From Planctomycetota bacterium (lineage in GTDB: Bacteria > Planctomycetota > PLA2 > JAEUHO01): a stretch of DNA of 64,000 nucleotides. Below are positions 6,747-26,100 of the stretch, piece by piece; the stretch's first letter is position 1; each line of letters begins with the position of its first letter. The notes under the pieces are model-generated. The model was not told where the DNA came from, ran no database searches, and was given only the letters and a program-made list of their open reading frames with translations. The stretch lies in NCBI GenBank assembly GCA_965222115.1, contig CBDCTJ010000007.1, positions 2,336,001 through 2,400,000 of the forward strand. Reading direction: 5' to 3'. A program made the position numbers and the translations under genes.

Positions 6747-8351
6747 ATGGCCCAAACGAAGAAGGCACCCGCAAAGAAGCCCACCATTGACGACGTCATG
6801 GCGGTGCTGGAAGAGCGCTACGGACTACCGCCGAGCGATCTCGGCCGGCCGGAAGACCCGTTAATCGACAAGTTGTTAATGTTGGTGCTTGAGCCCTACA
6901 CGGGCAGCATCGAAAAAGCCAAGGATGCCATTCGCGACGCGTCGCGCCGGGTGATCGACTTCAATGAGTTGCGCGTGAGTGGCCTGCGCGAGTTTGAAGA
7001 CATCATCGCGCCGTATGTGCCCGCGCCGCTGCGTCAACGCGCCGCGTGGGATATGCGCATGGCGCTGCAAGACGTGTGGGATGGTTCCCATGGGCTCGAT
7101 CTTGAACCGCTGCGCAATCGTCCACCGGAGGATCAGCGCAAGTTCTTGGCCGACCTGCCGAATGTTTCGGGTGGGGTTGCCGCGCTCATCTTCCAAATCG
7201 CTTGTGGCGACAAATACGTAGCCTTCGGTCCGCGCGAGGAAAAGTTGTTGGTGCGGTTTGGCTTGCTACCCCGTAGCTCGACGCGCGAACGCATTCGTCT
7301 AGCTATTGAACGACGGGTAAAGCCAGAAGATCGGAGGCGTTTCTCATGGCTGGCGGGCCACGGCGCCAATCTCTTTGAACACGATTTCGATCCAGCAAAT
7401 CCATTTTGCAAGTTGCTTGCGGCGGCCCGGGCCAAGGAACTCCAACTTCGAGCGCAGGAAGCCAAACGCGAAGAAGCCCGACGCAAGGCCGAAGAAAAGG
7501 CGCGTCGAATCGAAGAAGAGAAACAACGTCGCATTGAAGAGCGCGAGCGCAAGCGCATTGAACGCGAAGAAGCCAAGCGCCAGCGCGCCGAAGAGATGAA
7601 GCGTAAGCGCGAAGAAGCCGCTGCCCGACGCAAGGCAGAAGCCCTCGCCCGCAAGGAAGCCGCCGCCAAGCGAAAGGCTGAGATGATTGCTCGCCGTAAG
7701 GCCGAAGCGATTCGCAAGAAGGAAGCTGCCGCCAAGAAGAAAGCGGCCATGATTGCCAAGAAGAAAGCTGCCGCGGCCAAGAAGAAGGCTGCGCTGGCGA
7801 AGAAGAAGGCGGCCGCCAAGAAGAAGGCCGCAATGGCGAAGAAGAAAGCGGCGATGGCCAAGAAGAAGGCTGCGCTTGCAAAGAAGCGCGCTGCGGCAAA
7901 GAAGAAAGCTGCACTCGCCAAAAAGAAGGCCGCTGCCGCCAAGAAGAAAGCTGCTGCTGCGAAGAAGAAAGCAGCGATGGCCAAAAAGCAGGCTGCCGCG
8001 AAGAAGAAGGCTGCGATGGCCAAGAAGCGCGCTGCAGCCGCCAAGAAGAAAGCCGCTCTCGCCAAGAAGCGCGCTGCGGCCAAGAAGAAGGCTGCGAAAA
8101 AGAAGAAGAACGCCAAAAAGTCCGTGAGAAAGAAGACGTCGGCGGCCAAGCGCAAGAAGAAGGCTCCCGCACGAACAAAGAAGAAGGCATCCAAACGCAA
8201 GAAGACGCGTGCCGGCTCAAAGAAGAAGGCTGCGAAGAAGAAGGCAAAGAAGCCCAAGAAGAAGCCAAAGTCGAAACCCAAAAAGAAGGCAGCGCGTCGC
8301 AAGACAAAGAAGAAGGCCAAGCGAAGGGCGACGAAGAAGCGCAGGCGGTAG
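6747..8351 (+). CDS. Endonuclease III/HhH-GPD-like N-terminal domain fused to a long Lys/Ala-rich histone H1-like tail
   Basis: N-terminus (DFNELRVS, LDLEPLR, FLADLPNV) resembles a degenerate HhH-GPD fold. It is followed by an E/R/K coiled coil and ~230 aa of KKKAAA-type repeats. Confidence 0.65.
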   Translation: MAQTKKAPAKKPTIDDVMAVLEERYGLPPSDLGRPEDPLIDKLLMLVLEPYTGSIEKAKDAIRDASRRVIDFNELRVSGLREFEDIIAPYVPAPLRQRAAWDMRMALQDVWDGSHGLDLEPLRNRPPEDQRKFLADLPNVSGGVAALIFQIACGDKYVAFGPREEKLLVRFGLLPRSSTRERIRLAIERRVKPEDRRRFSWLAGHGANLFEHDFDPANPFCKLLAAARAKELQLRAQEAKREEARRKAEEKARRIEEEKQRRIEERERKRIEREEAKRQRAEEMKRKREEAAARRKAEALARKEAAAKRKAEMIARRKAEAIRKKEAAAKKKAAMIAKKKAAAAKKKAALAKKKAAAKKKAAMAKKKAAMAKKKAALAKKRAAAKKKAALAKKKAAAAKKKAAAAKKKAAMAKKQAAAKKKAAMAKKRAAAAKKKAALAKKRAAAKKKAAKKKKNAKKSVRKKTSAAKRKKKAPARTKKKASKRKKTRAGSKKKAAKKKAKKPKKKPKSKPKKKAARRKTKKKAKRRATKKRRR

Positions 8352-8461: not shown

Positions 8462-9040
8462 GTGAAGCCACTCGTCCTCGCCAGTGCCAGTCCCCGTCGC
8501 GCCGAGTTGCTACGCGAAGGCGGCATCGCATTCGAAGTGTCACCCCGTTTGAATGTGGATGAGTCCTATGAGGCCGGATGGGCACCGACTCAAATCGTCG
8601 AATCGCTGGCGAAGCGAAAGGCCGAGGCCGCGATAGCCCAGTTTCCCGACCGATTCATTCTTGGCGCCGACACGATTGTCGTGCACGAAGGGGATGTCCT
8701 GGGGAAGCCGAAGGATCGAGAAGACGCGGTTGCCATGTTGAAGCGCCTTTCGGATCGCTGGCATGACGTGTGGACCGGCGTCGCAATTGTTGCTCCCGGC
8801 AACCCCGAGGCCGCGCATGTAGGGCATGTGCGTACCGCGCTCTGCTTTCGCGCATTGGACGATCAAGAGATTCACGACTATGTCAATAGCGGCGAACCTA
8901 TGGACAAGGCAGGCGCTTACGCAATTCAAGGCGACGCGGCGGAGTGGGTCACGAAGTGTGAAGGTCCGGTGGACAATGTGATTGGCTTGCCCATGTTGCA
9001 TGTCGAGCGGTACCTGGGGGTGGTGGGGTACGGCGAATAA
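8462..9040 (+). CDS. maf: Maf family nucleoside triphosphate pyrophosphatase
   Basis: LVLASASPRRAELL, GADTIV, LGKP, DKAGAYAIQG and NVIGLP motifs. Confidence 0.95.
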   Translation: MKPLVLASASPRRAELLREGGIAFEVSPRLNVDESYEAGWAPTQIVESLAKRKAEAAIAQFPDRFILGADTIVVHEGDVLGKPKDREDAVAMLKRLSDRWHDVWTGVAIVAPGNPEAAHVGHVRTALCFRALDDQEIHDYVNSGEPMDKAGAYAIQGDAAEWVTKCEGPVDNVIGLPMLHVERYLGVVGYGE

Positions 9041-9073
9041 ACGTGTCCCGCTCGGAACGCCGTCATCCGTTTT

Positions 9074-9197
9074 CCCGTACCCCGTACCCCGTACCCCGTC
9101 ACCCCGTCACCCGGGCACAAGAATGAGTGTTCGATGATCGACTCGTCCATCGTTTAGGACGTGGACGTGGACGTGGACGTGGACGTGGACGTGGACG
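9074..9197 (+). repeat. Composite repeat unit 1: (CCCCGTA/CCCGTCA)n, degenerate core, (GGACGT)x~7
   Basis: Heptamer tandem 9074-9114 and hexamer tandem 9157-9197, which ends 1 nt from the four-helix-bundle stop codon. Confidence 0.9.
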
Positions 9198-9198
9198 G

Positions 9199-9573
9199 TC
9201 AAGGCTCGTCGAACCTTCGTTGAAGCACAAACAACATGGCGGCGCATCGCTCCAGAGTGTTCATGACGCTTGAAACTGCGGCCTCGCTGGCGAGTCCGAG
9301 TAGTAGCGCTTGATGTAGAGCGGCAATGGCTTCGGTGCATTCGGCGTGTGCGATATCGTAAGCTTTGCGTTTCTCGGCTGGCCGCCGTTTCGATATGCCT
9401 TCGGCGACGTTTAGCGCCACGCTGGTACTTGCGCGCCTGAGTTGATCGGCGAGTTTTGCGTGGCCACGAGGCCATTCACCGCAGATGGTGACGCACCCGA
9501 CCGCCGCGGCCTGCGATGCACGGTAGACGTCGAAGCGTTTGAGGTATTCGAGCGTGGAAGACGCGCTTGTCAT
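9199..9573 (-). CDS. Four-helix bundle protein (Avd-like / 23S rRNA IVP family), copy A1
   Basis: 124 aa with FDVY...LADQLRRASTSVALNVAEG...IAHAECTE signature; GGAG upstream of the ATG at 9573; about 85% identical to 15104-15478. Confidence 0.9.
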   Translation of the reverse strand: MTSASSTLEYLKRFDVYRASQAAAVGCVTICGEWPRGHAKLADQLRRASTSVALNVAEGISKRRPAEKRKAYDIAHAECTEAIAALHQALLLGLASEAAVSSVMNTLERCAAMLFVLQRRFDEP

Positions 9574-9609
9574 GATGGAGCTCCAGCGTGAAGGGATCGC
9601 AAGCCGTTT

Positions 9610-9663
9610 GCTCGTGTGTGCCCTTCGCAAAAGAGCCGAAGGCGAAGGAGGGCGCACACGAGC
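9610..9663 (-). promoter_or_regulatory. Conserved hairpin in the leader of four-helix bundle gene A1
   Basis: GCTCGTGTGTGCCC...GGGCGCACACGAGC 14-bp stem; homologous stem at 15515-15568. Confidence 0.6.
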
Positions 9664-9783
9664 GGGTCGTACAAACAGAACCCCGCGCAATAGCGTCAAC
9701 TCGTTCTCAAGCTGGAGTTCCATCACAAGCGGAGTTCGCGCGTACCGAACGTGCTGGAGCAACTGGCGGTGTTGTCTAAGGCT

Positions 9784-9870
9784 CCGTCACCCGTTACCCT
9801 TTCCCCGAGTTCAAGGGCGGGCATCCGATGAACGATTCACGACCCCTTAACGTGAACGTGGACGTGGACG
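9784..9870 (+). repeat. Composite repeat unit 2 (short, degenerate)
   Basis: CCGTCACCCGTTACCC, core (GAGTTCAAG..GCATCCGATG..CGATTCACG), then CGTGAACGTGGACGTGGACG. Confidence 0.8.
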
Positions 9871-10017
9871 GTGTGCGCACCGAACTGATTGCTGTGTGAC
9901 GTGAAGGCTCACCGGGCAACACCCGCTTGGGAAGTGCTACGTGCATGCCCCTATTCGCCACAAGGGCGAGGGCACGCACTCGCATTCCCGCGGGTGTTTC
10001 CTCGTGGAGATTCTCGT

Positions 10018-10404
10018 ATGTCACACAGCAATCAGTTCTCGGTTACTTCCACGGCGAGTCGGCTTGAACGGTTCGACGTGTATCGAATTGCACGGCGTGC
10101 CGCGGCGAGCATTCACCATCTCTGTGGATCGCTGCCTCGAGGCAACGCCGAGCTCGCAAGCCAAGCTCGACGAGCCTCTGCGGCCGTCGTCCTCAACGTC
10201 GCGGAGGGCATCGGACGTGCCGGCACGGGCGCCAAGCACCGTTCGTTCTCAATCGCTCGCGGCGAGTGTGTCGAGGCCTCGGCTGCGCTCGACCTCATGC
10301 AGGCAATGGGTATTCTCACAAACGCGTGCGCGATGCCTACACTTCGTGATCTCGACCGCGTCCGCGCGATGTTGAACGCACTTATCCGCCGCTGGAGGGA
10401 ATGA
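10018..10404 (+). CDS. Four-helix bundle protein (Avd-like / IVP family), divergent copy B
   Basis: 128 aa with RFDVY...LASQARRASAAVVLNVAEG...IARGECVE; GGAG upstream of ATG 10018; divergent from A1. Confidence 0.88.
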   Translation: MSHSNQFSVTSTASRLERFDVYRIARRAAASIHHLCGSLPRGNAELASQARRASAAVVLNVAEGIGRAGTGAKHRSFSIARGECVEASAALDLMQAMGILTNACAMPTLRDLDRVRAMLNALIRRWRE

Positions 10405-10422
10405 GGGGAGTTACATGAAAGC

Positions 10423-10465
10423 CGAATCCCGCAAAAAAGTGCCGGGTGTAAATTTGCGGGGTTCG
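10423..10465. terminator. Possible bidirectional terminator hairpin between convergent genes
   Basis: CGAATCCCGCAAA...TTTGCGGGGTTCG inverted repeat; long loop and no clear U-tract. Confidence 0.4.
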
Positions 10466-10476
10466 TCTCACCTTCG

Positions 10477-11784
10477 TCAGCCGTCCTTCTTCTCCAACGC
10501 CTTCCTAAGCAACGCTCCGAGTTGGGTTTCGCCTTCGGCTTCTTGGCCACCGGACAAGACATCGCGAATGGTCGCATCGTCGGCGACGTCGGCAGTGAGC
10601 AAGTCGCCGCGTTCACTTAGTAGCGAGAGTCCGATGCGACGACGATCCGGTTCAATGTTGGCGATGCGCACGCTGAGCGTTTGGCCAATCGACACGACTT
10701 CTTTGGGGGAGCGCACCGAATGGGGCGCAAGTTGGCTTACGTGGGCCAATCCCTCCACACCTTCGGCAACTTCGACGAACGCACCGAAGTGAGCCATGCG
10801 TGTGACTTTGCCCTCGACGACCGATCCTGCAGGATTGCGTTCGATGAATGCGAGCCAAGGATCTTGGTCCAGCGCCTTTTTGCTCAGGCTGATGCGTCGC
10901 CCGTTTTCTTCAATGGACAGAATCTTGACGGTGACTTTGTCGCCTTCAGAAATGTGTTCCTTGGGATCTTCGACGCGTTTCCAAGCGAGTTCGGATACAT
11001 GCAAAAGGCCTTCGACGCCTCCAATATCCACAAATGCGCCAAAAGGCTCAACGCGCGTAACCGAACCACTTACGACGACACCGGGCGCCAAGCTGCTGAC
11101 GGCCTGCGCACGCGATTCTTCGCGTTCTCGTCTTAGGAGTCCGCGGCGGGAGACAATCAATCGTCGTTTTTCCCGATCGATCTCGATCACTTCCACAGAG
11201 AGGGCGCGTCCCACGAAAGTCTCTGGCTCCTCCACTCGCTCAAGCGCGATGTGCGAGACCGGCATGAACGCGGTCAGTACGCCACACTGCACTTCGAACC
11301 CACCCGTATTGGTCGCGCGCACCGTGCCTTGAAGGATCGAACCCACTTCGAGCCCGTCCCACTCCGCCGTTTGAATCGATCGGTGAAGGCTGCACAGGAA
11401 GATGCCCTCTTGTGCATCTTGTTCGCGCACAAAGACTTTGATGGAGCTGCCCACGTCGGGTGGCGTGCCGAAGTGCCCCGCTGGTACAACACCTTGAAGT
11501 CGAGGCCCAAACTCAATGAACACATCTTTGTCGGTGACGCCTGCCACGGTTCCCTGACAGAACGCGCCCTCTTTGGGATCCGTTGAAATGGCGTCTTGCG
11601 TTCTATCCCACGCAGCTAGTGCGTCTTCCATCGACGGTTCGTCGTCCTCGCTGCCCATTAGCGATGTGCCAGCGAGCGCCGCCTCGATTTCCTTTTCCAA
11701 TTCTTCGTCCGTTGGTGCCTTTGAGTCGCCGGTTGGCAAGTCCGGTGTCATGTCGGCGATTGGCTTTTCGTCAGGATCGGACAT
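10477..11784 (-). CDS. S1 RNA-binding domain protein (short ribosomal protein S1-like, 4 S1 domains)
   Basis: Four S1 repeats, e.g. GSVTRVEPFGAFVDIGGVEGLLHVSEL and GKVTRMAHFGAFVEVAEGVEGLAHVSQL. Confidence 0.88.
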   Translation of the reverse strand: MSDPDEKPIADMTPDLPTGDSKAPTDEELEKEIEAALAGTSLMGSEDDEPSMEDALAAWDRTQDAISTDPKEGAFCQGTVAGVTDKDVFIEFGPRLQGVVPAGHFGTPPDVGSSIKVFVREQDAQEGIFLCSLHRSIQTAEWDGLEVGSILQGTVRATNTGGFEVQCGVLTAFMPVSHIALERVEEPETFVGRALSVEVIEIDREKRRLIVSRRGLLRREREESRAQAVSSLAPGVVVSGSVTRVEPFGAFVDIGGVEGLLHVSELAWKRVEDPKEHISEGDKVTVKILSIEENGRRISLSKKALDQDPWLAFIERNPAGSVVEGKVTRMAHFGAFVEVAEGVEGLAHVSQLAPHSVRSPKEVVSIGQTLSVRIANIEPDRRRIGLSLLSERGDLLTADVADDATIRDVLSGGQEAEGETQLGALLRKALEKKDG

Positions 11785-12024
11785 TTGTCAGGCGCTCCGT
11801 GGGGGACCGGATAGTTTCCGTTCGGGCATCGGGCGGTGGCAAGATTGGATTTGGGTGTGAAATGGAAATCGCTGCAAATTGAAGGCGCGTGTGCGACGGG
11901 AGCGGCGTACCTCACGCAGAGGCGCGGACTGGCGAGAGGCGCAGGGAGAACTCAGCTAAAGAAGGCGACAACAACTTAGGGCGCGTGTCGGAGATTCCAA
12001 GGGTCGAAGACCCGATGGAAGCGG

Positions 12025-12080
12025 AGACCCTGAGTAAGCACCAGCGGATCTTTGATCCGCGCAGTGCGCATCGATGGGTC
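12025..12080. repeat. REP-like palindromic repeat (copy 1 of 2)
   Basis: AGACCCTGAGTAAGCACCAGCGGATCTTTGATCCGCGCAGTGCGCATCGATGGGTC; near-identical to 15853-15906. Confidence 0.75.
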
Positions 12081-13236
12081 AGCTGGGAACGCCCCTACTC
12101 GGCCCCTCGTAAAGCAATTCAGAATCCGCGTTGCGCTTCGTCTTTGGCCCGCGTTCTAAACGGAACATGCCAATGGCCAAAAGCACGACACCAACGCCCA
12201 TCGCAACTCCGTGGATGCGCTCATCGATCATCCATCCGGCAACGGTGGCAACCGCGATGGCTAGGCCTGCGAGAACAAAGGTCCATGGCGATGTCGCTTT
12301 GGCCTCTGAAGCATGTCGCGATGCGGGTTGCGCAGGACCTCGAGCGCGTCGTTGTTGATCGTTGAGTACTTCGACCGGCGACCTGAATCCCGAGGCAGCG
12401 CCGGCGAGGTCTTTGGGGGCTCGTGTGAGGCCTTGTCGATTGGCGGCAAGGATCTTCTGCGCGTCTTTGCCGGGTTGTCGGGTGTCGTTTTTGTAAATAT
12501 TGAGAAACGCTTCGCGATCGTCTTCACGCAGCCAACGATTGCCCGTGCGCTCGGCACGAATGGTGGTCATGGTGCGACCCATGTCGTCGTGGCCCGGATG
12601 CACCACGGTTTCGGATGGGCGATTACGGAAGAGGCGTTCCATGGTGTCGAACCATGCATTGCCGTCGCTTCCGGGCGCGTCGCGTACGCCGACGGTTCCA
12701 ATCAACAGTGTGTCGCCCGTGAAGAGTGCGCCGGGCGCCTCAACAACCAGGGCGTCATTGGTAACGCCGGGGGCGTGGTGAATCGTGAGTTGCTGCTCGC
12801 CGAGCGGAAGGATTGCGCCGTCGCTCGGTCGCGCTGTGGCGTTTTGATTTTCGGCGTTGGGATGAACGACATAGTCGCACCCGAGGCGGGCATGAAGGGC
12901 CGCGCCGCCCGATAGGTGATCGCCATGCGAGTGGGTATCCACGACGTAGCGCACGCGCGCCCGCTGGCTCGAGAGCGCTTCCATAGTTTCGCGAATGTTG
13001 TCGAGCACGGGATCGACTACACACGCCTCGCGAGAGCGTGGATCCACCGCGATGTAGGTGCGGCATCCGCGCGCATGGCAGATTTCGGTGACTTCGACGC
13101 GGCGGGGATCTCGGACCATGGCGAAATGATCCCTGGTGGGGGGGACGCCCGACGACCGGGCAGCATGCGGAATGTCGTCCGAAACGAGCCATCCTGCGGT
13201 TCGGGCTCGGTGCTCGCTATCCTGTTTGAATGGCAC
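12079..13236 (-). CDS. MBL-fold metallo-hydrolase (ETHE1/persulfide dioxygenase-like) with C-terminal TM helices
   Basis: DTHSHGDHLSG, FTGDTLLIG and VHPGHD motifs; hydrophobic C-terminus; true start may be downstream. Confidence 0.8.
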   Translation of the reverse strand: MPFKQDSEHRARTAGWLVSDDIPHAARSSGVPPTRDHFAMVRDPRRVEVTEICHARGCRTYIAVDPRSREACVVDPVLDNIRETMEALSSQRARVRYVVDTHSHGDHLSGGAALHARLGCDYVVHPNAENQNATARPSDGAILPLGEQQLTIHHAPGVTNDALVVEAPGALFTGDTLLIGTVGVRDAPGSDGNAWFDTMERLFRNRPSETVVHPGHDDMGRTMTTIRAERTGNRWLREDDREAFLNIYKNDTRQPGKDAQKILAANRQGLTRAPKDLAGAASGFRSPVEVLNDQQRRARGPAQPASRHASEAKATSPWTFVLAGLAIAVATVAGWMIDERIHGVAMGVGVVLLAIGMFRLERGPKTKRNADSELLYEGPSRGVPS

Positions 13237-14954
13237 GGCGCACCCACCGAACTCGAGTTGCTACCCTGAGCGGCAAACGCACGCCTGTCACGTCGCTGCC
13301 GCTTCTCATGGTCGCCGCCTTCTGTTTGCTTGTGAACGATGCATGCGGCGGTACGCCACGGTGGGGCATGGGCCCGTTTCCTGTTGGCGGTAAGAACACA
13401 TCCACCGCGGGTGCGCTTGCCGTGCTCACGGGGTTGAGCCCATCGATTGCGCGCACACGAGCCATTGCGTGGGAAGAACTCGAGCCGCGCATGATGCCCG
13501 GTACGCTCGGTCGCTACGAATGGGGGCGACTCGACGCCGCCGTGCGACTTCTGCAGCTCGGCGGATTCGAACCGCTGGTTGTTTTGTCTTGTCGTTCATC
13601 ATGGGCGTGCCAACCCACCGACACAACGGCTTGGGCGAAGCGTTGTTCGAGCGAACTGTCACGTGGCGAAGCTACGGCGGCCTTGGTGGAGACCAACGGA
13701 TCGGGTCGTCCACCGCGCAAGGAACATTGGAAGCGTTGGGAGGTGTTTGTTCAACACCTTATGGAACGCTACGACGGTGACGGGAAGCACGATATGCCCG
13801 GACTGCGTCGCCCCATTATTGGTGTACAGATTCAGGAATCGCCCGGCGAACTTGACGATTGGATTGGCAGCGTCAGCGACTACCTGCGGTTGTTGCACCA
13901 CACAGATCTTGGCGCCCACGCGGCGAGTGCAAGCGCACTTGTCGTCACCGGTGCCGTCGATGTGATGCAAACGGGGCAGGCGCCTCACCCCGCACCGAAG
14001 CAGTGGAAACGGCGCATTCGGGATGTGTTACCCACCGCGCCTCAGTCGGCGGTCATGGCCGCCGAGCGCGCCTTTGAACTCTTGGATCGTCTGCTCGAAA
14101 TGCCCCGTGTCTACGATGTGATTTGCCAGCGCGCATCGGGCAATCTGCACAACGACTTTGCCAATATCCGCTTTCTGCGAAGAACGCTGGATGGCAAGCG
14201 CGAGTATGACCGACGCGTGTGGCTCGTGAATGCGGGACGCAATCTAGAACGAGCCACCATCCGCGGTAAACCCAAACCATCCGAAGACGAACTCCGTATT
14301 CGGCGACGCTGGGTGCCGCCCGCCACCAACCCTGGCCATTCTGAACATGCGCGTGCCAAGGCTTGGTTGCGCTTGGGTCAAGCCTACGACGTTATTCGCA
14401 CCTTTTGTACGGCACGCCTGGCCGGAGCCGATGCCGTGGTATGTCATGCGCCGTTTGATGAAGTGTTGGATGCTCGCGGTCGTACCGTTCGCGGCGCCCA
14501 GTATTTGGGTCTGGTTGACGCGAAAGACCTTGACGTTGCTGCGACGGCATCGCGTACACCCAGTTGGTACGCGGCAAAGCAACTTGGCGATCTACTGCAC
14601 GACCACCGCAGCGTGGCTGAAGCCAACAAAGGGCTCCCGGGTCGAACCGTGTTGTTTCATTTCAACGCGAATGCAAAGCACTCATTTGTCGCCGTCCTCT
14701 TTCGCGATCCATCGCGTACATGGGCCGGCGAACCGGGTCGCAATGGCCGCCCCCCCAAAGCCAAGCTCCACTTTGCCGCCATGCCACTCCCCAATGGCCA
14801 CTACTACGTTGAGTCCATTCGCACCACCGCGAAGCCGGCACCCAAGAAGCGTGTAAACGTGCGCGATGGTGTTCTCGAATTGAGCTTGGGTCCTGCGCCT
14901 GTGTTTGTGTATCCGGTGCCGTTGAACGAAATCACGGCGGATCGGGGGAAGTAG
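13230..14954 (+). CDS. Putative glycoside hydrolase-like (clan A TIM barrel) exported protein
   Basis: WEELEP..GRYEWGRLDAAV and ERYDGDG..DMPGL..PI motifs; the usual NEP position reads QES; start uncertain. Confidence 0.5.
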   Translation: MARRTHRTRVATLSGKRTPVTSLPLLMVAAFCLLVNDACGGTPRWGMGPFPVGGKNTSTAGALAVLTGLSPSIARTRAIAWEELEPRMMPGTLGRYEWGRLDAAVRLLQLGGFEPLVVLSCRSSWACQPTDTTAWAKRCSSELSRGEATAALVETNGSGRPPRKEHWKRWEVFVQHLMERYDGDGKHDMPGLRRPIIGVQIQESPGELDDWIGSVSDYLRLLHHTDLGAHAASASALVVTGAVDVMQTGQAPHPAPKQWKRRIRDVLPTAPQSAVMAAERAFELLDRLLEMPRVYDVICQRASGNLHNDFANIRFLRRTLDGKREYDRRVWLVNAGRNLERATIRGKPKPSEDELRIRRRWVPPATNPGHSEHARAKAWLRLGQAYDVIRTFCTARLAGADAVVCHAPFDEVLDARGRTVRGAQYLGLVDAKDLDVAATASRTPSWYAAKQLGDLLHDHRSVAEANKGLPGRTVLFHFNANAKHSFVAVLFRDPSRTWAGEPGRNGRPPKAKLHFAAMPLPNGHYYVESIRTTAKPAPKKRVNVRDGVLELSLGPAPVFVYPVPLNEITADRGK

Positions 14955-14983
14955 GGGTTGGGTACAACTAGATGTGATAAAGC

Positions 14984-15102
14984 TCACCCGTCACCCGTCA
15001 CCCGTCACCCGTTACCCGGACTCAAGTCTGAGCGTCCGATGTTCGATTAGCGCCTGTTCGTGGACGTGGACGTGGACGTGGACGTGGACGTGGACGTGGA
15101 CG
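14984..15102 (+). repeat. Composite repeat unit 3: (TCACCCG)x4+TTACCCG, core, (GTGGAC)x7
   Basis: Directly visible. The hexamer array ends 1 nt from the stop of 15104-15478. It contains the unoccupied IS target CCCGGA-CT-CAAGT (CT at 15021-15022). Confidence 0.92.
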
Positions 15103-15103
15103 A

Positions 15104-15478
15104 TCACGGGTCGTCGAATCGACGCTGAAGTACGAACAACATCGCGACACATCGCTCCAAGGAGTTCATCACGCGTGAGGTTATGGCGTCGCTGGCGAGG
15201 CCGAGTAGCAGCGCGTGATGTAGGGCCGCAATGGCTTCAGTGCATTCGGCGTGTGCGATGTCGTACGCTTTGCGTTTCTCGGCTGGACGCCTTTTCGATA
15301 GGCCTTCGGCGACGTTTAGCGCCACGCTGGTACTAGCGCGCCTGAGTTGATCGGCGAGCTTTGCGTGGCCTCGAGGCCATGTGGCACAGAGGGCGTTGCA
15401 TTCAAGTGCCGTGGATTGTGAGGTGCGGTAGACATCGAAGCGTTTGAGGTACTCAAGCGTGGAAGACGCGCTTGTCAT
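15104..15478 (-). CDS. Four-helix bundle protein (Avd-like / IVP family), copy A2
   Basis: 124 aa; same signature as 9199-9573, with 19 substitutions by manual alignment. Confidence 0.9.
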   Translation of the reverse strand: MTSASSTLEYLKRFDVYRTSQSTALECNALCATWPRGHAKLADQLRRASTSVALNVAEGLSKRRPAEKRKAYDIAHAECTEAIAALHHALLLGLASDAITSRVMNSLERCVAMLFVLQRRFDDP

Positions 15479-15514
15479 GATGGAACTCCAGCGTTAAGGG
15501 AATGCAAGCCGTTT

Positions 15515-15568
15515 GCTCGCGTGTGCCCTTCGTGAAGGAGCCGAAGGCGAAGGAGGGCACACGCGAGC
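15515..15568 (-). promoter_or_regulatory. Conserved hairpin in the leader of four-helix bundle gene A2
   Basis: Perfect 14-bp stem GCTCGCGTGTGCCC...GGGCACACGCGAGC. Confidence 0.6.
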
Positions 15569-15688
15569 GGGTCGTACAAAAGAAGCCCCGCGTAATAGCG
15601 ACAACTCGTTCTCAAGCTGGAGTTCCATTGCAAGCGGCGCCCGCGCGTACCGATCCCGCTGGAGCAGCCGGCGGTGTTGCCCAAGGTT

Positions 15689-15825
15689 CCGTCACCCGTT
15701 TCCCGTGCCCCGTTACCCGGACTCAAGTGTGGGCGTCCGATGTTCGATTCACGCCAGCTCGTGGACGTGGACGTGGACGTGGACGTGGACGTGGACGTGG
15801 ACGTGGACGTGGACGTGGACGTGGA
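15689..15825 (+). repeat. Composite repeat unit 4: heptamers, core, (GTGGAC)x10
   Basis: CCGTCACCCGTTTCCCGTGCCCCGTTACCCGGA-CT-CAAGTGTGGGCGTCCGATGTTCGATTCACGCCAGCTC-(GTGGAC)10. Confidence 0.92.
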
Positions 15826-15852
15826 GAGCAAATGGCCTTGCCATTTGCGCGA

Positions 15853-15906
15853 AGACCCTGAGTAAGCTCCAGCGGATCTCTGATCCGCGCAGTGCGCTTC
15901 GAAGGG
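15853..15906. repeat. REP-like palindromic repeat (copy 2 of 2)
   Basis: AGACCCTGAGTAAGCTCCAGCGGATCTCTGATCCGCGCAGTGCGCTTCGAAGGG. Confidence 0.75.
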
Positions 15907-15945
15907 TGGACGCAAAATTGCTCGCGTCAGGTTCCCGGTCAAACG

Positions 15946-16320
15946 CTACTTATACGCCCCATCCTTCTTCATCGCGCATGTCTTGCACGCGGGGCCACCG
16001 TTGGCCTTGTGTTCATAGCAGTCTTTGCACGCGGTTTTGTCGCCTTTGATATAGCCAGCACTGCAGGCTTCGCACCATACGCTTTCGCCGGTCTTGCCCT
16101 TGTAGCAACTTTCGCAGCCCGTCTTATTGCCATCGACGTAGCCCACGCCGCAGGCTTCGCACCAAACGTTCTCGCCTTTCTTGCCCTTTGTGCACGTCGC
16201 GCAGGCCTCGGCCTCTTGGGAATCGCCACAGCCTGTAAGGAGTACGACGGCGGGTGCGGCAACGAACAAGGTGGCGACAATGAACAGCTTGGCGGATAGA
16301 AATCGTGTGAGGGTTTTCAT
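15946..16320 (-). CDS. Small Cys-rich putative lipoprotein with six CxxC motifs
   Basis: GGAG RBS, signal peptide with LTGC lipobox, internal repeat C..C.KGK.GE.VWCEAC..GY..G.KT. Confidence 0.7.
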   Translation of the reverse strand: MKTLTRFLSAKLFIVATLFVAAPAVVLLTGCGDSQEAEACATCTKGKKGENVWCEACGVGYVDGNKTGCESCYKGKTGESVWCEACSAGYIKGDKTACKDCYEHKANGGPACKTCAMKKDGAYK

Positions 16321-16459
16321 GGGGGACTCCGGGCGGAACACTTGCGCGTAAGGATTGAAGCAAGCGCGGTTTGCCTACACACCTGGCAACCGACTACCAT
16401 CCCATGACAACGAGCGTCGTGGGTGGGCGTTGAGAGCCCACGAAGGAGTGTTTGCTGCG

Positions 16460-17035
16460 TTACTTGGACGCTGGCGCTTCCGTCTCGGTGTTCAAGTGTT
16501 CTTCCCAAAGACGCTCAATGGCGATTTTTGCCCACGGCGTAAACATGTCGGGATCTGCCTTGGCAGCCGCCGCGCATTGCGATAGCTCCATCCACGCAAT
16601 GGTGTAGGCATAGTCGGGATTGAGTTTGGCATCTTCGTGGGTGATGGTGCACTCAAAGAGTGTGCAGTGTTCATGTTCACTGCCGAGTTCTTCCGTTGCG
16701 TGATAAACGAACGAGAACTTCTCGTAGAGCGGTGCAGCCAAGCCCCACTCCGCGTGCAAGCATCGCCACGCCGCATCAACGAGTGTTTCGGTTTCGTCTC
16801 CGCGTACGAGCGGGTGTGTAGCACCACCGAGGTCCCAATAGCCGTCCCACAGCTCGGCCCGACGTTTGTGAAGCAGCACGAGACCGCGCGCGTCGCGAAT
16901 CGACAACATGATGGCTTGATGCAGCTGGCCGTTGCCTTCGTGGCACGCGGAGCGCTCCTTGACGCCTGTTGGCGAACCGGATTCGTCACAGAGCACGAGC
17001 ATCTGTTCAGGAAACGGATTCTTCTTTTTCGTCAT
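16460..17035 (-). CDS. idi: Isopentenyl-diphosphate delta-isomerase type 1 (NUDIX)
   Basis: CH..G.LHQA, LLHKR...W.GYWD...THP, EWGL, EHEHC and FTPW motifs. Confidence 0.8.
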   Translation of the reverse strand: MTKKKNPFPEQMLVLCDESGSPTGVKERSACHEGNGQLHQAIMLSIRDARGLVLLHKRRAELWDGYWDLGGATHPLVRGDETETLVDAAWRCLHAEWGLAAPLYEKFSFVYHATEELGSEHEHCTLFECTITHEDAKLNPDYAYTIAWMELSQCAAAAKADPDMFTPWAKIAIERLWEEHLNTETEAPASK

Positions 17036-17078
17036 GATGATTCCTACGCGCCATGCGCAACGCATACGCGGGTCGTCG

Positions 17079-18554
17079 TTACGCGTCCCATGCGGGTGGC
17101 AGCAAACGTCGTTTTCCGTCCTCGGTACGTGGGATGTCGTTCGGCACCGGATCCGCGCCGCGCAAGCCAATCTTGTCCCATAGCTTGCACGTCACTTCTT
17201 TGTGGGCCTGGTCGAGTCCCTCGCAATAGTTCGTATAGGTACAGCGCCGAATCTCGGAACCGCGACCGAGGGCCATTTTCCTGAACCAGTCAGGGTCCGC
17301 CAGTGATTGCCGGGCCGCAGCGATCAAATCGGCATGTCCATCCTTGAGTGCTGCCTCAGCCTGGTCAAATGTGCAGATGCCTCCGGCAGCCACTATTGGC
17401 GTTTCATGGCCATCGGCGCGTACCGCATCCCGGACGGCCCGGGCCAGCGGAATATTGCGCCCAAACGGACCTGGCGGACCGATTCGGGTGGTGGGCATGC
17501 ACTCATGCCCGCTTTCACCTGTGTAGGGATAGATGGCGTGACCAACTCGTGGCCGTTTGGCGTCCTCAAATCGCCCGCCCTTGGACAGCGAGAGGAAGTC
17601 CAGCCCAGCGGCAGCAAAGGCCCGCCCATAGGCAACTGCGTCCTCGATGCGGCTGCCGCCCTCAACGACGTCATCGCCAAGGAAGCGAGCACCTACGCAC
17701 ACCTCATGACCCACGCGCTCGCGAACGGCTTGGATGACCTCAAGTGGCAACGCCATTCTCCGTGCCTGCGTGCCGCCATAGTCATCGCTTCGCACATTGG
17801 TGCGACTCAAGAAGGACGACATGGTGTAGGCGTGTGCAAAATGGAGCTCCACGCCGTCAAAGCCTGCCCGAACCGCGCGATCGCTGGCATCGGCAAAGAG
17901 TGTTGGCAGCGTTACCGGCAACGATCGAATATGGGGGAGATGCGTGTCATTGACCGTTTCTCTGTACCCGAAGTGAAGCGCTTCATGCTCGCGCGCGGAG
18001 AGCAGCCCAAGGTGCTCCGCGGGTGTCGCCGCGGCGACCGCGCTCGCCACATCGTCGTCGGATGCCGTTCGCCATCCAGAATCTCTCCGCAAGTTTGCGA
18101 GCTTCCACCGATGTGCGGCGGTGGGTTTGAAGTATCGCTGAAAGTAGGTCTCGGGTTGTGGCCGTCGATTGACCCGCAGAAAATCGATGATCTGGAGGAG
18201 GAATCGCGTTTGACCCTTGCTGGCCTCTTTGACCCGCTCGGTGAGGCGTTTCATGCCCGGAACGAATCGATCATGACCGATGCGTAAAAGCGGCCCGCTG
18301 GGGATGTCGCGAATGCCTGTGGCCTCGGCCACCAGTACGCCCGGCTGCCCAGCCGCGAAACGCGCATACCAGTCGAGGTTTCGATTCGTGACGAAGCCGT
18401 CATTCGTTGCGCGCCACGGGACCATCGCCGGCACCCACGTGCGCGACCTTGCCGTCAGGGGTCCGACTCGAATGGGGCGAAAGAGCCTCGCGCCCTCGGC
18501 TTGCTCAACGCTTGGCCAGCTCGCATCGGGGAGGGGTACCGGCACCCGCGTCAT
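17079..18554 (-). CDS. NADH:flavin oxidoreductase / old yellow enzyme family
   Basis: LFRPIRVG, AGFDGVELHFAHAY..SSFLSRTN.R.D.YGG, ARQSLADPDW and C-terminal CTYTNYC. Confidence 0.88.
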   Translation of the reverse strand: MTRVPVPLPDASWPSVEQAEGARLFRPIRVGPLTARSRTWVPAMVPWRATNDGFVTNRNLDWYARFAAGQPGVLVAEATGIRDIPSGPLLRIGHDRFVPGMKRLTERVKEASKGQTRFLLQIIDFLRVNRRPQPETYFQRYFKPTAAHRWKLANLRRDSGWRTASDDDVASAVAAATPAEHLGLLSAREHEALHFGYRETVNDTHLPHIRSLPVTLPTLFADASDRAVRAGFDGVELHFAHAYTMSSFLSRTNVRSDDYGGTQARRMALPLEVIQAVRERVGHEVCVGARFLGDDVVEGGSRIEDAVAYGRAFAAAGLDFLSLSKGGRFEDAKRPRVGHAIYPYTGESGHECMPTTRIGPPGPFGRNIPLARAVRDAVRADGHETPIVAAGGICTFDQAEAALKDGHADLIAAARQSLADPDWFRKMALGRGSEIRRCTYTNYCEGLDQAHKEVTCKLWDKIGLRGADPVPNDIPRTEDGKRRLLPPAWDA

Positions 18555-18600
18555 TCGGGAATCCTCCGTCTTTGCTGCGTGTCCGCGTTTAATTGGGCCT

Positions 18601-19113
18601 ATGAGGGTCATTCTACTCCGCCACGGCATTGCCTTACCCCAAGACGGTCGAGAGATTCAGAGCGACGCTGCGCGTCCGCTTAGCCCCGAGGGCATTCGCA
18701 AGACGCGGCGTGCGTGCGCCGGGCTCGCGCGGTTGTTGGACGGTCAATCGGTGGCCGTGCTTTCGAGTCCTCTTGTTCGTGCCCGCGAAACGGCCGAACT
18801 GCTTGGCGAAGAGCTTTCCGCCACCACCGACGTGCGCCTAGTGGACGCGCTTGCCATCGGCGAAGACACCGCGGCGGTGCTTACGGAGCCGGAGTTGCAA
18901 GGCGGTTATGACGCGATCGTGTTGGTTGGACATCAGCCCAGCATGAGTGCCCTTGCAAGTTACCTCGTAGCCGGCGATTGGAGTGTGCGAATGGGGTTCA
19001 AAAAGTCGGCGGCATTTTGCGCTTCTTTCATGGGTCGCGCAGTGCCGGGTCGTGGTGAGATGGAATGGTTCCTTCCGCCCAAAGTACTGCGCGGGTACGG
19101 GAAGGGCCGTTGA
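18601..19113 (+). CDS. sixA: Phosphohistidine phosphatase SixA-like
   Basis: LLRHGIA, RPLSPEG, SSPLVRARETA and LVGHQP motifs. Confidence 0.85.
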   Translation: MRVILLRHGIALPQDGREIQSDAARPLSPEGIRKTRRACAGLARLLDGQSVAVLSSPLVRARETAELLGEELSATTDVRLVDALAIGEDTAAVLTEPELQGGYDAIVLVGHQPSMSALASYLVAGDWSVRMGFKKSAAFCASFMGRAVPGRGEMEWFLPPKVLRGYGKGR

Positions 19114-19300
19114 ACCAAGCCGCTTGAGGTTGTCGATCGAATCGATCGCTTGACAGGGAGCCTACCGACCCATGCCCGTTGCCAGCTCGGTGCACGAAAC
19201 GCGACAACCATGCAAGGATCCATATGTCTGCATGGTTTCAGGGCCTCGAAGGGAGGCGAACGCATCTGCTGGATCTGCGCGCTCCTGGTCTCTTAACCTC

Positions 19301-21816: not shown

Positions 21817-21977
21817 GCCTCGAAGAGCCCAACAGGAAGCAAACCGCGTCAGCCAATTCGGCCCCGCCTAGTGGGCCCAATTCGTGACCGTCTTTCCGCG
21901 CGGCGGGGTTGATGGTCGATAGTATTCCCATTTCTAGGGCCCCAGCCCTGCACCAGTTCGTCCAACGGAGAAGCACT

Positions 21978-23573: not shown

Positions 23574-23627
23574 CTCGGATCCTTCCGCCGCAATCCGACT
23601 ATTGAATCGCCGAGCGCCGAATTAGCG

Positions 23628-23690
23628 CTTCGCGACCTCGACCGCGTTCGCGCGATGTTGAACGCGCTCGTCCGCCGCTGGAGGGCGTGA
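23628..23690 (+). pseudogene. 3'-terminal fragment of a type-B four-helix bundle gene
   Basis: Encodes LRDLDRVRAMLNALVRRWRA*, nearly identical to the end of 10018-10404 (LRDLDRVRAMLNALIRRWRE*). Confidence 0.8.
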
Positions 23691-23765: not shown

Positions 23766-23822
23766 CCCGTTACCCGAAACCCGTTACCCGTTACCCGACA
23801 CCCGCAACCCGTTACCCGGACT
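23766..23822 (+). repeat. Composite repeat unit 5, left half (heptamers up to the CT insertion point)
   Basis: CCCGTTA-type heptamers ending GTTACCCGGA-CT. Confidence 0.88.
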
Positions 23823-24791
23823 TCTATGAAAGGGCCTGGCATGTCAAGTGCGAAGCCGCGTCGGCGAGCGCATTTACCGCGTTGTGCATGTGTAGTTCGG
23901 CCCCTTGAGTGCGCAACTTACCCTTACCGCCCTTGCCTTTTTGGCAGCGGATCGGGGCGAATCAGATTGCCAGTCATCGTCTCTGGCGCCAGAAAACACG
24001 TCCCATTCAGGCTTCTATGCGCACTCGTGTTGGATCGAAGTTGATGCGACCCGGTGCAAGGTGGGGTCCGAGAACGAGTCTGGGTGCTGCATACTCAGTA
24101 GCGACGTCGCTATACGTCGGTCAGGGCACCGCAGTCACCCGGACTTCTATGAAAGGGCCTGGCATGTCAAGTGCGAAGCCGCGTCGGCGAGCGCATTTAC
24201 CGCGTTGTGCATGTGTAGTTCGGCCCCTTGAGTGCGCAACTTACCCTTACCGCCCTTGCCTTTTTGGCAGCGGATCGGGGCGAATCAGATTGCCAGTCAT
24301 CGTCTCTGGCGCCAGAAAACACGTCCCATTCAGGCTTCTATGCGCACTCGTGTTGGATCGAAGTTGATGCGACCCGGTGCAAGGTGGGGTCCGAGAACGA
24401 GTCTGGGTGCTGCATACTCAGTAGCGACGTCGCTATACGTCGGTCAGGGCACCGCAGTCACCCGGACTTCTATGAAAGGGCCTGGCATGTCAAGTGCGAA
24501 GCCGCGTCGGCGAGCGCATTTACCGCGTTGTGCATGTGTAGTTCGGCCCCTTGAGTGCGCAACTTACCCTTACCGCCCTTGCCTTTTTGGCAGCGGATCG
24601 GGGCGAATCAGATTGCCAGTCATCGTCTCTGGCGCCAGAAAACACGTCCCATTCAGGCTTCTATGCGCACTCGTGTTGGATCGAAGTTGATGCGACCCGG
24701 TGCAAGGTGGGGTCCGAGAACGAGTCTGGGTGCTGCATACTCAGTAGCGACGTCGCTATACGTCGGTCAGGGCACCGCAGTCACCCGGACT
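23823..24791. repeat. Three tandem 323-bp direct repeats (23823-24145, 24146-24468, 24469-24791)
   Basis: ACCCGGACT recurs at 23814, 24137, 24460 and 24783; the units appear identical. Confidence 0.95.
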
Positions 24792-24852
24792 CGAATTGGG
24801 GTACGTGGAAACTGACCTTATCTAATGCTTGCCTAAAGCTGTTGCGCGAGGT
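24469..24852 (-). ncRNA. Putative bridge/seek RNA region downstream of the transposase
   Basis: Location typical of IS1111. Contains a target-like segment (ACCCGG-TG-CAAG-GTGGG-GTCCGA), donor-junction-like segments (TCCCAT and CTTCTATG) and stem-forming sequences. Exact ends unknown. Confidence 0.65.
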
Positions 24853-25902
24853 TCAGGCGGCCACTGGGCATCGAACCGGTATGTACTCTTCGCCTGTTCG
24901 CCACAGCGCAAGCATGAGCACGGAGAGCTTGCGTGCCACGGCGATGACTGCCTTGCGTTTCGCAACTGCGCCTCCACGCGCAATGATCCGCTCACCGTGG
25001 GACTTTAGATCGCATGGCGGGCCCAGTCGCCCGAGGATGTGATGCGCGCACTGAACGAGCAACGACCGAACCATACGGTCCCCAGCCTTCGTTATGCGTA
25101 GCTGCTTGTCCATTTGGCCGGATTGATCACGCCGTGGAACCATCCCGAGAAACGCCCCGACATCTCGGCGGTCTTCAAACCGCGCCCAATCTTGAACGGT
25201 TAACATGAATGCGAGTGCCGTGAGATTGCCCACGCCTGGAATCTGAGTGAGCAACTGTGTATCTGGATATCGCTCGTTCGCCAACTCATCGATCTTTGCG
25301 TCGTAGATCTTTACCAACTCAGTGATTCGCTCGATTGCACCGAGAAGGGGACTAAGCACATCGTAGAGCTCCTCCGGAATCTCGGCCCGCGTCTTCGTTC
25401 CGATGCATTTTGATGCCTGCTTACGCAACCGCCCGCCCATGCTCTTAATGACGCCTCGTAGCGAGTTCACCAACTTGGTTCGTGACGACACAAGCGCGGC
25501 TCGTGCACGAATCAGCGCAAGGTCTCGTTGTGCGGACTCCGGTCGATGCCGAATTGGGGCAAGTAGTTGGGGATCGAAGCGACCGATTTCAGCCAACTTC
25601 TTGGCATCCGTTCGATCGGACTTGCGAGTGTTCCTGTAAATAAAGCTTAGCTCTCGCGGATTCGCGACTAGCGACTGAGCACATCGACCTTCGACGACCC
25701 GACTCGCCCAAGGCGAATGCGTTCCCGCCTCCATCACAACTCGAGCGGTTCGGTGCTTCGATAGAAACTCGTGAAACGATTCGCGCGTTGTCGCTATCTC
25801 GCCTTCTTCCTTCTGAACCCCCGTGTCTTGATCTAAGACGCAATACCAAGAGAATCGGTCGCCTAAGTCGATGCCAATCGTTTCGGTGATACGCTTATGC
25901 AT
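24853..25902 (-). CDS. IS110 family transposase/recombinase
   Basis: TIGIDLG, VMEAG and KSDRTDA (DEDD RuvC-like domain); IPGVG...GMVPRRDQSG...ITKAG; AVARKL; AGGAGGAG RBS. Confidence 0.95.
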   Translation of the reverse strand: MHKRITETIGIDLGDRFSWYCVLDQDTGVQKEEGEIATTRESFHEFLSKHRTARVVMEAGTHSPWASRVVEGRCAQSLVANPRELSFIYRNTRKSDRTDAKKLAEIGRFDPQLLAPIRHRPESAQRDLALIRARAALVSSRTKLVNSLRGVIKSMGGRLRKQASKCIGTKTRAEIPEELYDVLSPLLGAIERITELVKIYDAKIDELANERYPDTQLLTQIPGVGNLTALAFMLTVQDWARFEDRRDVGAFLGMVPRRDQSGQMDKQLRITKAGDRMVRSLLVQCAHHILGRLGPPCDLKSHGERIIARGGAVAKRKAVIAVARKLSVLMLALWRTGEEYIPVRCPVAA

Positions 25903-26001
25903 GCTGGTAGCTCCTCCTGGGCCGTAGAGCCCGCTTATTGTTTGCAGCACGGTTTACCGTGACTGCGCGACAGAGGAGCTACCGGCCTTTTCATCCCATC
26001 T

Positions 26002-26100
26002 CAAGTGTGAGCGTCCGATAGTCGATTCACGCCAGCTCGTGGACGTGGACGTGGACGTGGACGTGGACGTGGACGTGGACGTGGACGTGGACGTGGACGT
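26002..26100 (+). repeat. Composite repeat unit 5, right half: core remainder + (GTGGAC)x10
   Basis: CAAGTGTGAGCGTCCGATAGTCGATTCACGCCAGCTC-(GTGGAC)10, matching unit 4. Confidence 0.9.

Follow-up and report, generated by a model that had tools for sequence, protein, structure and literature searches.

Four-helix-bundle genes of family PF05635 and a composite repeat unit belong together in this genome, as a lineage-specific family of single-gene cassettes. A profile search of the 4.55 Mb genome gave 18 PF05635 matches above the curated cut-off, all at C7:2.27-2.85 Mb; a unit adjoins every one of them (18/18), and 17/18 have units on both sides (C7 and C3 are contigs; all other positions count within the window, the whole 64,000-nt stretch of DNA analysed). 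The preliminary description of this DNA had proposed that gene, leader and flanking units make up a discrete cassette and had named a genome-wide lack of association between units and genes as its refutation; the arrangement instead recurs at the PF05635 genes. We favour, with a little less than even confidence, the reading that the cassettes are an old family, selfish or domesticated, which sits within a mosaic repeat and is moved or exchanged when the repeats recombine. Proteins of PF05635 (S23p, 'four helix bundle protein') abound and have a known function only in the role of Avd in retroelements; heptamer repeat arrays have likewise long been known and still lack an explanation. The cassettes offer a clearly delimited setting in which to study the role of this widespread family and of its repeats.

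Each unit combines C-rich CCCGNNN heptamers (also written CCCGNNA) with a 45-nt core that is conserved and with GTGGAC hexamers, in some cases followed by a tail, and the units flanking a gene are in direct orientation. There are two types of gene, of which T1 reads antisense to the unit and T2 in the sense direction, each with a long leader hairpin of its own over the start codon, and the window contains five composite units, two antisense T1 genes and one sense-strand T2 gene. Unit A1 (9074..9197, +) consists of a heptamer array (9074-9112), a diverged core and 6.8 copies of GTGGAC (9157-9197, Tandem Repeats Finder). It is followed by T1 gene A (9199..9573, −; 124 aa, PF05635 E 4.7e-17, intact ORF), T1 leader A (9574..9779, −), a long hairpin over the ribosome-binding region with a fold z of −4.2, and unit A2 (9780..9870, +), which has a short heptamer array, a core of subtype 'GGGCGGGC' and 3.7 hexamers including one variant copy (9849-9870, Tandem Repeats Finder). 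Unit A2 lies between divergent T1 and T2 genes: the T2 leader (9879..10040, +) is a near-perfect hairpin of ~160 nt, the outer stem of which pairs with the start codon and first six codons of the T2 gene (10018..10404, +; 128 aa, PF05635 E 1e-17, intact ORF), located 3' of unit A2 with no unit downstream. The two minus-strand T1 genes had been recognised previously, but this third PF05635 gene had been missed. The second module comprises unit B1 (14984..15102, +; heptamers 14984-15018, GTGGAC array 15059-15102 with 7.3 copies), T1 gene B (15104..15478, −; 124 aa, PF05635 E 6.2e-17), T1 leader B (15479..15688, −) and unit B2 (15689..15825, +; heptamers 15689-15719, (GTGGAC)x11.0 at 15760-15825). 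Both modules are located as originally reported and share 83% identity over 798 nt. The hexamer copy number does vary in the manner described (about 7, 3, 7, 10 and 10), with 11.0 rather than 10 copies in the last module array, and the T1 stop codon does adjoin the GTGGAC array, at 2 nt past the last full hexamer.

Directly after unit B2 there is a tail repeat of ~90 nt with two small hairpins (15822..15911, +), which has a solitary copy at 12021-12079 and is elsewhere often found 3' of units. Unit C is interrupted: its left half (23766..23822, +; 8 heptamers and the first core bases) and right half (26000..26100, +; the remaining core and (GTGGAC)x10.5) enclose an IS110-family insertion sequence (23821..26002, −) that sits in the core, with its transposase at 24853-25950 and its first 323 bp in three tandem copies. 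The earlier statement that the window contains no reverse transcriptase (RT) or recombinase had passed over this transposase, which does however belong to its own insertion sequence. Targeting of the unit core by IS110 was considered, and is weakened by two further copies of the element whose target is a different one, with no more in common with that in unit C than the CT core and, for one of the copies, left-side CCCGTACT. Chance can be excluded for the arrays, as there were 27 window matches to three tandem GTGGAC copies (≤1 mismatch) versus 0 in 100 shuffles, and 9 to four CCCGNNN copies in register versus 0 in shuffles. A σ70 consensus scan of 8900-10600 gave 0 promoter-like sites. Rfam scans of window positions 8500-27000 (by E-value; 0 matches) and of five cassette loci (at gathering thresholds; tmRNA and tRNA only) were empty for the cassettes, which thus match neither Gut-1 nor another described RNA.

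Genome-wide, 27 arrays contain at least three perfect GTGGAC copies (3-33 copies each), with 25 at C7:2.275-2.939 Mb and 2 on C3. The core had been described as a hairpin, which the predictions contradict: one unit folded as ssDNA reached −23.4 kcal/mol versus −30.1 ± 2.8 for its shuffles (z +2.4), and RNAalifold found no consensus base pair in 34 cores. A stem formed between the two array types was likewise rejected since these are not complementary, the hexamer-by-heptamer duplex (−32.5 kcal/mol) being comparable with shuffles (−34.1 ± 4.4) and far from a perfect complement (−110.3). Without a hairpin fold and without complementary arrays, the units do not form a stem of the type seen in rRNA intervening sequences.

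All 31 unit loci are located either within C7:2.27-2.94 Mb, ~0.7 Mb round the replication terminus, or on C3. Genes are present at 14 of these loci, as divergent T1/T2 pairs (4), T1 only (6) or T2 only (4), and the other 17 are gene-less, including at least two with leader stubs (C3:354k and C7:2443k), which indicates that genes were lost by deletion and that these solo units derive from cassettes. The 18 PF05635 genes all sit in gaps bordered by genes for proteins, tRNA or tmRNA; homology between loci stops at the units, beyond which unrelated housekeeping genes follow, maf, rpsA and pckA among them. Two loci are close to the 3' end of an RNA gene, one at 6 nt from that of tRNA-Leu and one at 42 nt from that of tmRNA.

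T1 and T2 copies are old and their proteins are under strong purifying selection, with dN/dS of 0.11 for T1 (45 pairs, dS 0.68; nucleotide identity 0.76-0.96) and 0.08 for T2 (28 pairs, dS 0.58), and reading frames intact in 18/18 genes. In T1 we find the R-x3-S-x3-N-x2-E portion of the motif that PMC3936711 gives for the family. The leaders, like the proteins, are kept by purifying selection: mean identity is 93.7% for T2 leaders versus 86.4% for the genes (8 copies), and 88.6% versus 83.8% for T1 (10 copies), and the noncoding leaders and cores are more alike than synonymous sites. The T2 leader hairpin has a predicted fold of −97.3 kcal/mol (z −10.2). Support from compensatory changes is thin for both hairpins, as most pairs are invariant and both sides changed in only 2/63 pairs for T2 (covariation term +1.02) and 4/69 pairs for T1 (+0.16); judging from the folds, the leader hairpins are plausible candidate RNase III substrates. 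Codon-usage scores per codon are 0.047 for T1 and 0.017 for T2 versus 0.148 ± 0.068 for 396 small genes, and this atypical usage gives the genes a selfish or foreign flavour, while long-term purifying selection over 18 copies is as compatible with a host function as with a selfish one. The genome offers 18 intact, selected copies in which the cis parts are well delimited: two array types, a conserved core and a hairpin with higher conservation than the gene.

With regard to exchange, the closest T1 pair contains a gene-conversion patch, with ~100% identity over ~250 nt of the gene and ≤70% in the flanking units. No two cassettes are near-identical overall, so present mobility, as originally proposed, left no sign; together with the lack of filled-versus-empty polymorphism this means that mobility is something we infer and do not see. 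Cores on either side of one gene are 0.763 identical versus 0.718 for all pairs, a mean reached in 1.3% of 5000 random draws (16 pairs), and the flanking partner is the best match in only 1/16; duplication at insertion as in LTR elements was rejected, with flanking units hardly more alike than random unit pairs. Public runs listed as containing the stretch were four from one study and none of RNA; their short-read contigs break at the arrays (9150-9206, 15049-15111 and 15751-15832), and the contig joints listed link paralogous units, making them uninformative on excision or array length.

In the cassette model that we prefer, recombination between repeated units would have spread the cassettes long ago and would still exchange and remove them. 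Exchange would include gene conversion, unit-by-unit recombination would drop genes and leave solo units behind, and there may be re-insertion at solo units, while the pure hexamer arrays would lengthen and shorten by replication slippage. The leader hairpin may hold translation low or make it processing-dependent, as in other selfish genes, and the T1 or T2 protein might have as its target the nucleic acid of its own cassette, in the hairpin or in the arrays, by analogy with the RNA binding of Avd in diversity-generating retroelements. To our knowledge, RNA binding by Avd is the sole biochemical activity known for such proteins.

The strongest competitor, although in our view unlikely, is that repeat and gene are two independent elements, i.e. 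a REP/BIME- or STRR-like repeat serving as 3' end, terminator or stabiliser, and a separate selfish gene that lands or is tolerated in its arrays. The 17/31 gene-less loci would fit this, as would gene-less units in tandem (e.g. C7:2687.3-2687.7k) and the REP-like preference for convergent gene gaps, which hold 17/31 loci compared to 375/2105 of all gaps on C7 (flanking genes called by a home-made codon-usage caller). Similarly, heptamer direct repeats are described in other bacteria in the available part of PMC4679880 without any noted link to a gene, and that part of the paper does not mention the four-helix-bundle or 23S intervening sequence family. Independent elements do not, however, readily account for the lack of any PF05635 gene away from a unit, for the leader stubs kept by at least two solo units, or for the gene-plus-array layout that recurs in several phyla and, built from different repeat words, in a genome of another family (see below).

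The units are also polar on the scale of the chromosome. Cumulative GC skew reaches its maximum at 2.775 Mb, and unit orientation equals the sign of the skew at 26/31 loci (24/29 on C7, 2/2 on C3), whereas just 52% of the genes of the same region are on the + strand; unit orientation thus follows the direction of replication. An orientation tied to the upstream gene was considered as well: this gene reads into the unit at 23/31 loci, but 17/23 are convergent sites, where this is automatic, and tandem sites give 6/10, which makes such a link inseparable from the convergent-site preference. Terminus clustering and replication-aligned orientation at this scale are unreadable from the short loci of other genomes. 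They could indicate a host function, in which polar units bound by T1 and T2 mark or organise the terminus in the manner of a fork trap or Ter domain and the genes are needed by the host, an explanation that we consider improbable. The confinement of all loci to the terminus region or C3 and the selection on all 18 copies agree with it, as does the finding that heptamer arrays make up 28 of the 200 canonical G-quadruplex motifs of the genome, in every case on the strand complementary to the unit. It is opposed by the atypical codon usage, by copy numbers between 0 and 21 among relatives, which would be odd for a core chromosomal role, and by the presence of the same family with flanking arrays in unrelated contexts of other phyla, such as rRNA (PMC4990558). 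In addition, the loci are not independent, and the orientation pattern could perhaps be a passive trace of local spread combined with terminus-symmetric inversions, from which just such a distribution would result.

By sequence, the solved structure closest to these proteins is Xcc0516 of Xanthomonas campestris (PDB 2GSC; E 0.0015, residues 13-117), a pentamer of four-helix bundles that is only a distant relative. It is conceivable, but again improbable, that such pentamers bind their own arrays and/or hairpin and form replication-polar nucleoprotein sites round the terminus, as a self-encoded element of a new type with the four-helix bundle as its sole protein, which would either spread via ssDNA at the fork or have been co-opted as a fork-trap or Ter-domain marker. 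If true, this would be the first PF05635 function outside retroelements, and would explain the short-period arrays accompanying PF05635 in many phyla.

The age and the clustering of the copies would both suit plain paralogy, in which an ancestral gene and its flanks were copied by local segmental duplications and then inherited vertically, without any mechanism of mobility or exchange and with the microsatellites as neutral slippage products: the copies are old (dS 0.58-0.68), lie in one chromosomal region and have no linked mobility gene. We nevertheless give this explanation little credence, since homology between loci does not extend past the units into the housekeeping genes at their flanks, which are unrelated, the loci extend over 0.67 Mb and another contig, the closest T1 pair has a conversion patch, leaders and cores are more alike than synonymous sites, and the design is common to a different family using other repeat words.

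The preliminary description had suggested a search for co-occurring RT, HUH or integrase genes, and genome-wide no recombinase, RT or HUH gene was found tied to the cassettes. Six of the seven RT matches belong to two three-copy families: one of 515 aa, all three copies of which have a group II maturase domain, and one of 445 aa, which is a multi-copy element of its own, with one copy ~1.2 kb from the first unit of a cassette and the other two without a cassette nearby. None of the seven tyrosine recombinase (PF00589) matches is at a cassette locus, the nearest two (C7:2,413,024 and 2,445,157) each adjoining a tRNA gene, and no units are near either of the two Y1_Tnp matches, of which the RAYT-like one at C7:1066506 is flanked by a different motif. 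A non-autonomous retro-cassette, with an Avd-like protein, an RT in trans, the core as priming site and microsatellites made by iterative templated synthesis as first suggested, is therefore highly improbable despite the likeness of PF05635 to Avd, the RT genes in the genome and the perfectly pure hexamer arrays of up to 33 copies, as six of the seven RTs belong to the elements just described, neither flanking unit is a fresh copy of the other, a template/variable repeat pair is absent from 8900-16100 (where the repeat families are units, cassettes and tail only), and the heptamer copies are heterogeneous, as expected of old slippage and mutation and not of a fixed template.

Among known systems, the cassettes recall ORF-bearing 23S rRNA intervening sequences (Leptospira, Coxiella burnetii; S23p ORF), which are regarded as selfish and of unknown mobility (PMC4990558). 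Both are small single-gene inserts with their own cis elements and a PF05635 protein, but the cassettes lie outside rRNA genes, have direct composite units at their flanks instead of terminal inverted repeats closing a stem round the ORF, and have a hairpin that is upstream and overlaps the first codons only. PF05635 is described as a family resembling Avd in the available part of PMC10053308, and the available part of 10.1101/2023.10.23.563531 reports that Avd binds RNA; the fold and family are related to those of Avd from diversity-generating retroelements (PDB 4DWL), although T1 and T2 have no adjoining RT and no target gene. As with integron cassettes and attC, there are short single-gene cassettes, a repeated site in direct orientation, two-cassette arrays and gene-less sites, whereas IntI is missing, the units do not fold into attC-like hairpins, and the cassettes occur in two orientations at 14 scattered loci. 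Mosaic structure, tandem 7-nt repeats and an intergenic, mostly convergent location are shared with REP/BIME mosaic repeats and STRR/TAACTGA heptamer direct repeats; the units differ from REP/BIME in lacking a palindromic REP core and in bracketing a specific gene family, from STRR/TAACTGA in their repeat word (CCCGNNA) and in having the arrays as part of a larger unit, and from REP/REPIN-RAYT in that no palindromic repeat also flanks a single-copy Y1 transposase gene. Unlike in LTR-like elements, the two flanking repeats are not each other's closest relatives. The likeness to replication fork trap or Ter-domain sites, i.e. polar, terminus-confined and with an orientation switch at the terminus, is one of distribution only.

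Finally, we also searched for the family in other genomes, among which the genus is represented by this one genome. PF05635 copy numbers in 30 relatives were 21, 7, 5, 2 and 2, with 0-1 in the rest, and a metagenome scan with T1 gave one distant relative at 38% identity. Presence of the genes at the same loci without repeats in relatives, raised beforehand as an argument against the cassette, was not observed: in the five relatives with both S1 and PF05635 matches the PF05635 genes are on contigs other than that of the S1 gene, and within 1.5 kb on either side of the S1 gene neither Maf nor unit-like arrays were present in nine relatives, where gene order is very different. A four-helix-bundle gene between short-period arrays was not found described in the literature outside rRNA intervening sequences. 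Arrays of period 5-9 occur at ≤600 nt from the gene at 27/37 PF05635-family loci from several phyla. In a genome of another family, one locus (L026 in G020) combines C-run arrays and ACGTNN hexamers with a frameshifted antisense gene and a sense gene, has a GC-rich hairpin ahead of the start codon, and its sense-strand gene aligns with T2 over a common IARGEC...ALDL stretch.

Inspection and repeat finding in the window recovered the two repeat-flanked four-helix-bundle modules of the preliminary description, and showed that each repeat unit is built from tandem CCCGNNN heptamers, a core of ~45 nt beginning ACCCGGACTCAAG, and tandem GTGGAC hexamers, in that order. Both arrays are far beyond chance expectation, with 27 (hexamer) and 9 (heptamer) pattern matches in the window versus 0 in 100 shuffles each. 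The hexamer arrays are pure and range from 2 to 33 copies genome-wide, and the heptamer varies at positions 5–7. The suggestion that the unit forms a hairpin was not borne out by the unit fold or by the consensus structure of the cores, and a duplex test found no complementarity between hexamer and heptamer arrays. The cassettes, i.e. gene plus leader between units, thus lack a closing stem of the kind found in ORF-bearing 23S rRNA intervening sequences (PMC4990558).

Three further features had been overlooked. The first is the interruption of the fifth unit (unit C, 23766..26100) at a CT dinucleotide within its core by an IS110-family element (23814-26002, transposase 24853-25950), the first 323 bp of which are present in three perfect tandem copies. 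In all three genomic copies of this element, the unit's heptamer/core junction is matched exactly by a 10-nt word 322 nt from the left end, which would explain the triplication via slippage or the recombinase; the remaining two genomic copies sit in another target. The second is a tail repeat of ~90 nt (15822-15911 and 12021-12079) with two small hairpins, which follows some units, is also present without a unit, and has no match in Rfam. One tail hairpin pattern matches ten times on contig C7, of which the window covers 2,336,001-2,400,000, and once on contig C3, the other 13 and three times, respectively, with every C7 match falling at 2.27-2.90 Mb.

The third is a second gene. The T1 gene (124 aa, minus strand, PF05635 E about 5e-17) lies between two direct-orientation units, with its stop codon 2 nt away from the hexamers and a leader of ~210 nt on its other side, and is divergently transcribed across unit A2 from a sense-strand T2 gene (10018-10404, plus strand, 128 aa, E 1e-17). 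A search of the whole assembly (4.55 Mb, seven contigs) gave 18 PF05635 matches (ten T1, eight T2), all at C7:2.27-2.85 Mb, free of internal stops and atypical in codon usage. The proposed association of gene and repeat holds genome-wide, as all 18 genes adjoin a unit, and 17 have units on both sides, the T2 gene in the window being the exception. Unit loci were curated by hand, with about 45 cores scoring as genuine; 14 loci carry genes (four divergent T1/T2 pairs, six T1 only, four T2 only) and 17 do not. Leader stubs of T1 or T2 are retained at two of the latter, indicating that some solo units are remnants after gene deletion. The reading that fits best, which we favour tentatively, is an old cassette family, selfish or domesticated, residing in a mosaic repeat by way of which it is shuffled; how the cassettes move and what the protein does are inferred.

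Two unrelated elements that co-locate would be a distinctly less probable account of the association. PF05635 matches were found in 13 of 31 genomes (the present one and 30 relatives, all of other genera), with a patchy distribution among the relatives (21, 7, 5, 2, 2, and 0-1 in the rest). The loci found in named genomes numbered 51, with a best identity of 44%. TRF was run on 37 of them (the other 14 being a duplicate and matches that were short or partial, in many cases at contig ends) and identified arrays of period 5-9 within 600 nt of the gene in 27/37 loci, some direct and some inverted; for comparison, the window outside the units has one period-7 array. In another family, locus L026 of genome G020 has the same building blocks with other words (C-run arrays and ACGTNN hexamers), together with an antisense and a sense gene and a hairpin ahead of the start codon. 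The antisense gene there is frameshifted and its leader hairpin tandemly duplicated (417-1000). The literature searches turned up no paper in which members of this family are tied to short-period arrays at their flanks in any setting other than rRNA.

The distribution of the loci counts in favour of a terminus function for the host, a reading that is unlikely. Along C7 the cumulative GC skew bottoms out near 0.58 Mb and peaks at 2.775 Mb, and the C7 unit loci span 2.27-2.94 Mb around this peak, with '+' orientation at 18/22 loci to its left and '-' at 6/7 to its right; both C3 loci are '-', on a contig with negative skew throughout. Orientation therefore agrees with skew at 26/31 loci, and convergent-gene gaps (genes called by our own codon-usage caller) hold 17/31 loci versus 375/2105 of all C7 gaps, counts which overstate the significance since the loci are not independent events. 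Unit polarity is no by-product of gene orientation, as the + strand share of genes in 2.27-2.82 Mb is only 52% (194/372). In the window the loci are flanked by housekeeping genes including ffh, rpsP, maf, rpsA and pckA. The end of one locus is 6 nt away from the 3' terminus of tRNA-Leu(taa), and that of another is 42 nt away from the 3' terminus of the tmRNA gene. The tmRNA gene at cassette locus L038 (900-1257) scored 147.8 bits with Rfam, and ARAGORN gave no tmRNA on the same locus.

Plain paralogy is slightly less probable still. Nucleotide identity among copies is 76-96% (mean 84%) for T1 and 84-90% for T2, and dS (0.68 and 0.58) and dN/dS (0.11 and 0.08) indicate that the copies are old and the proteins maintained by selection. 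They show no recent burst, in contrast to the identical IS110 and RT copies of this genome. Homology between loci always stops at the units, and the two units flanking one gene are scarcely more similar than random unit pairs, so they did not originate as identical copies at a recent insertion. The two most similar T1 copies (C7:2,633,936 and 2,730,842) share about 100% identity across about 250 nt of the gene, at most 70% in the units and unrelated sequence beyond, a pattern that resembles a gene-conversion patch bounded by the repeats.

Leaders are more conserved than genes (mean identity 93.7% for the T2 hairpin, 88.6% for the proximal T1 leader). The T2 leader is a predicted hairpin of ~160 nt (-97.3 kcal/mol, z -10.2), its outer stem pairing with the start codon and first six codons; the T1 leader (z -4.2) has a predicted stem covering the ribosome-binding region. 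The two have a GC-rich apex in common, and a similar hairpin precedes the genes in a genome of another family. Compensatory support is thin, with changes on both sides in 2/63 (T2) and 4/69 (T1) pairs and most pairs invariant.

The retro-cassette first proposed, with the core as priming site and the microsatellites products of templated synthesis, is very improbable. The genome search for RT, tyrosine recombinase and Y1 transposase genes revealed none tied to the cassettes. A three-copy RT gene (445 aa, without a detected maturase domain) has one copy (C7:2631845-2632531) about 1.2 kb away from a T1 cassette locus, an adjacency taken as chance since cassettes are absent from the vicinity of the remaining two. 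Copies of a short motif with the form GTGCCGGGNGCAAAT are spread across the genome, often just outside units (window 10439 and 23726; C7:1066195-1066357), and four of them adjoin the Y1 (HUH) transposase-like gene at C7:1066506; this is probably a separate REP/RAYT system. Elsewhere in the window, a 534-aa protein without a Pfam match (6747-8351, between rpsP and maf) has Lys/Ala-rich tandem repeats of periods 15-81 in its last third (7716-8291), and a 446-aa protein (1750-3087) combines TPR repeats with two RNA polymerase alpha C-terminal domains, its gene adjoining that of an ECF sigma factor (1024-1566).
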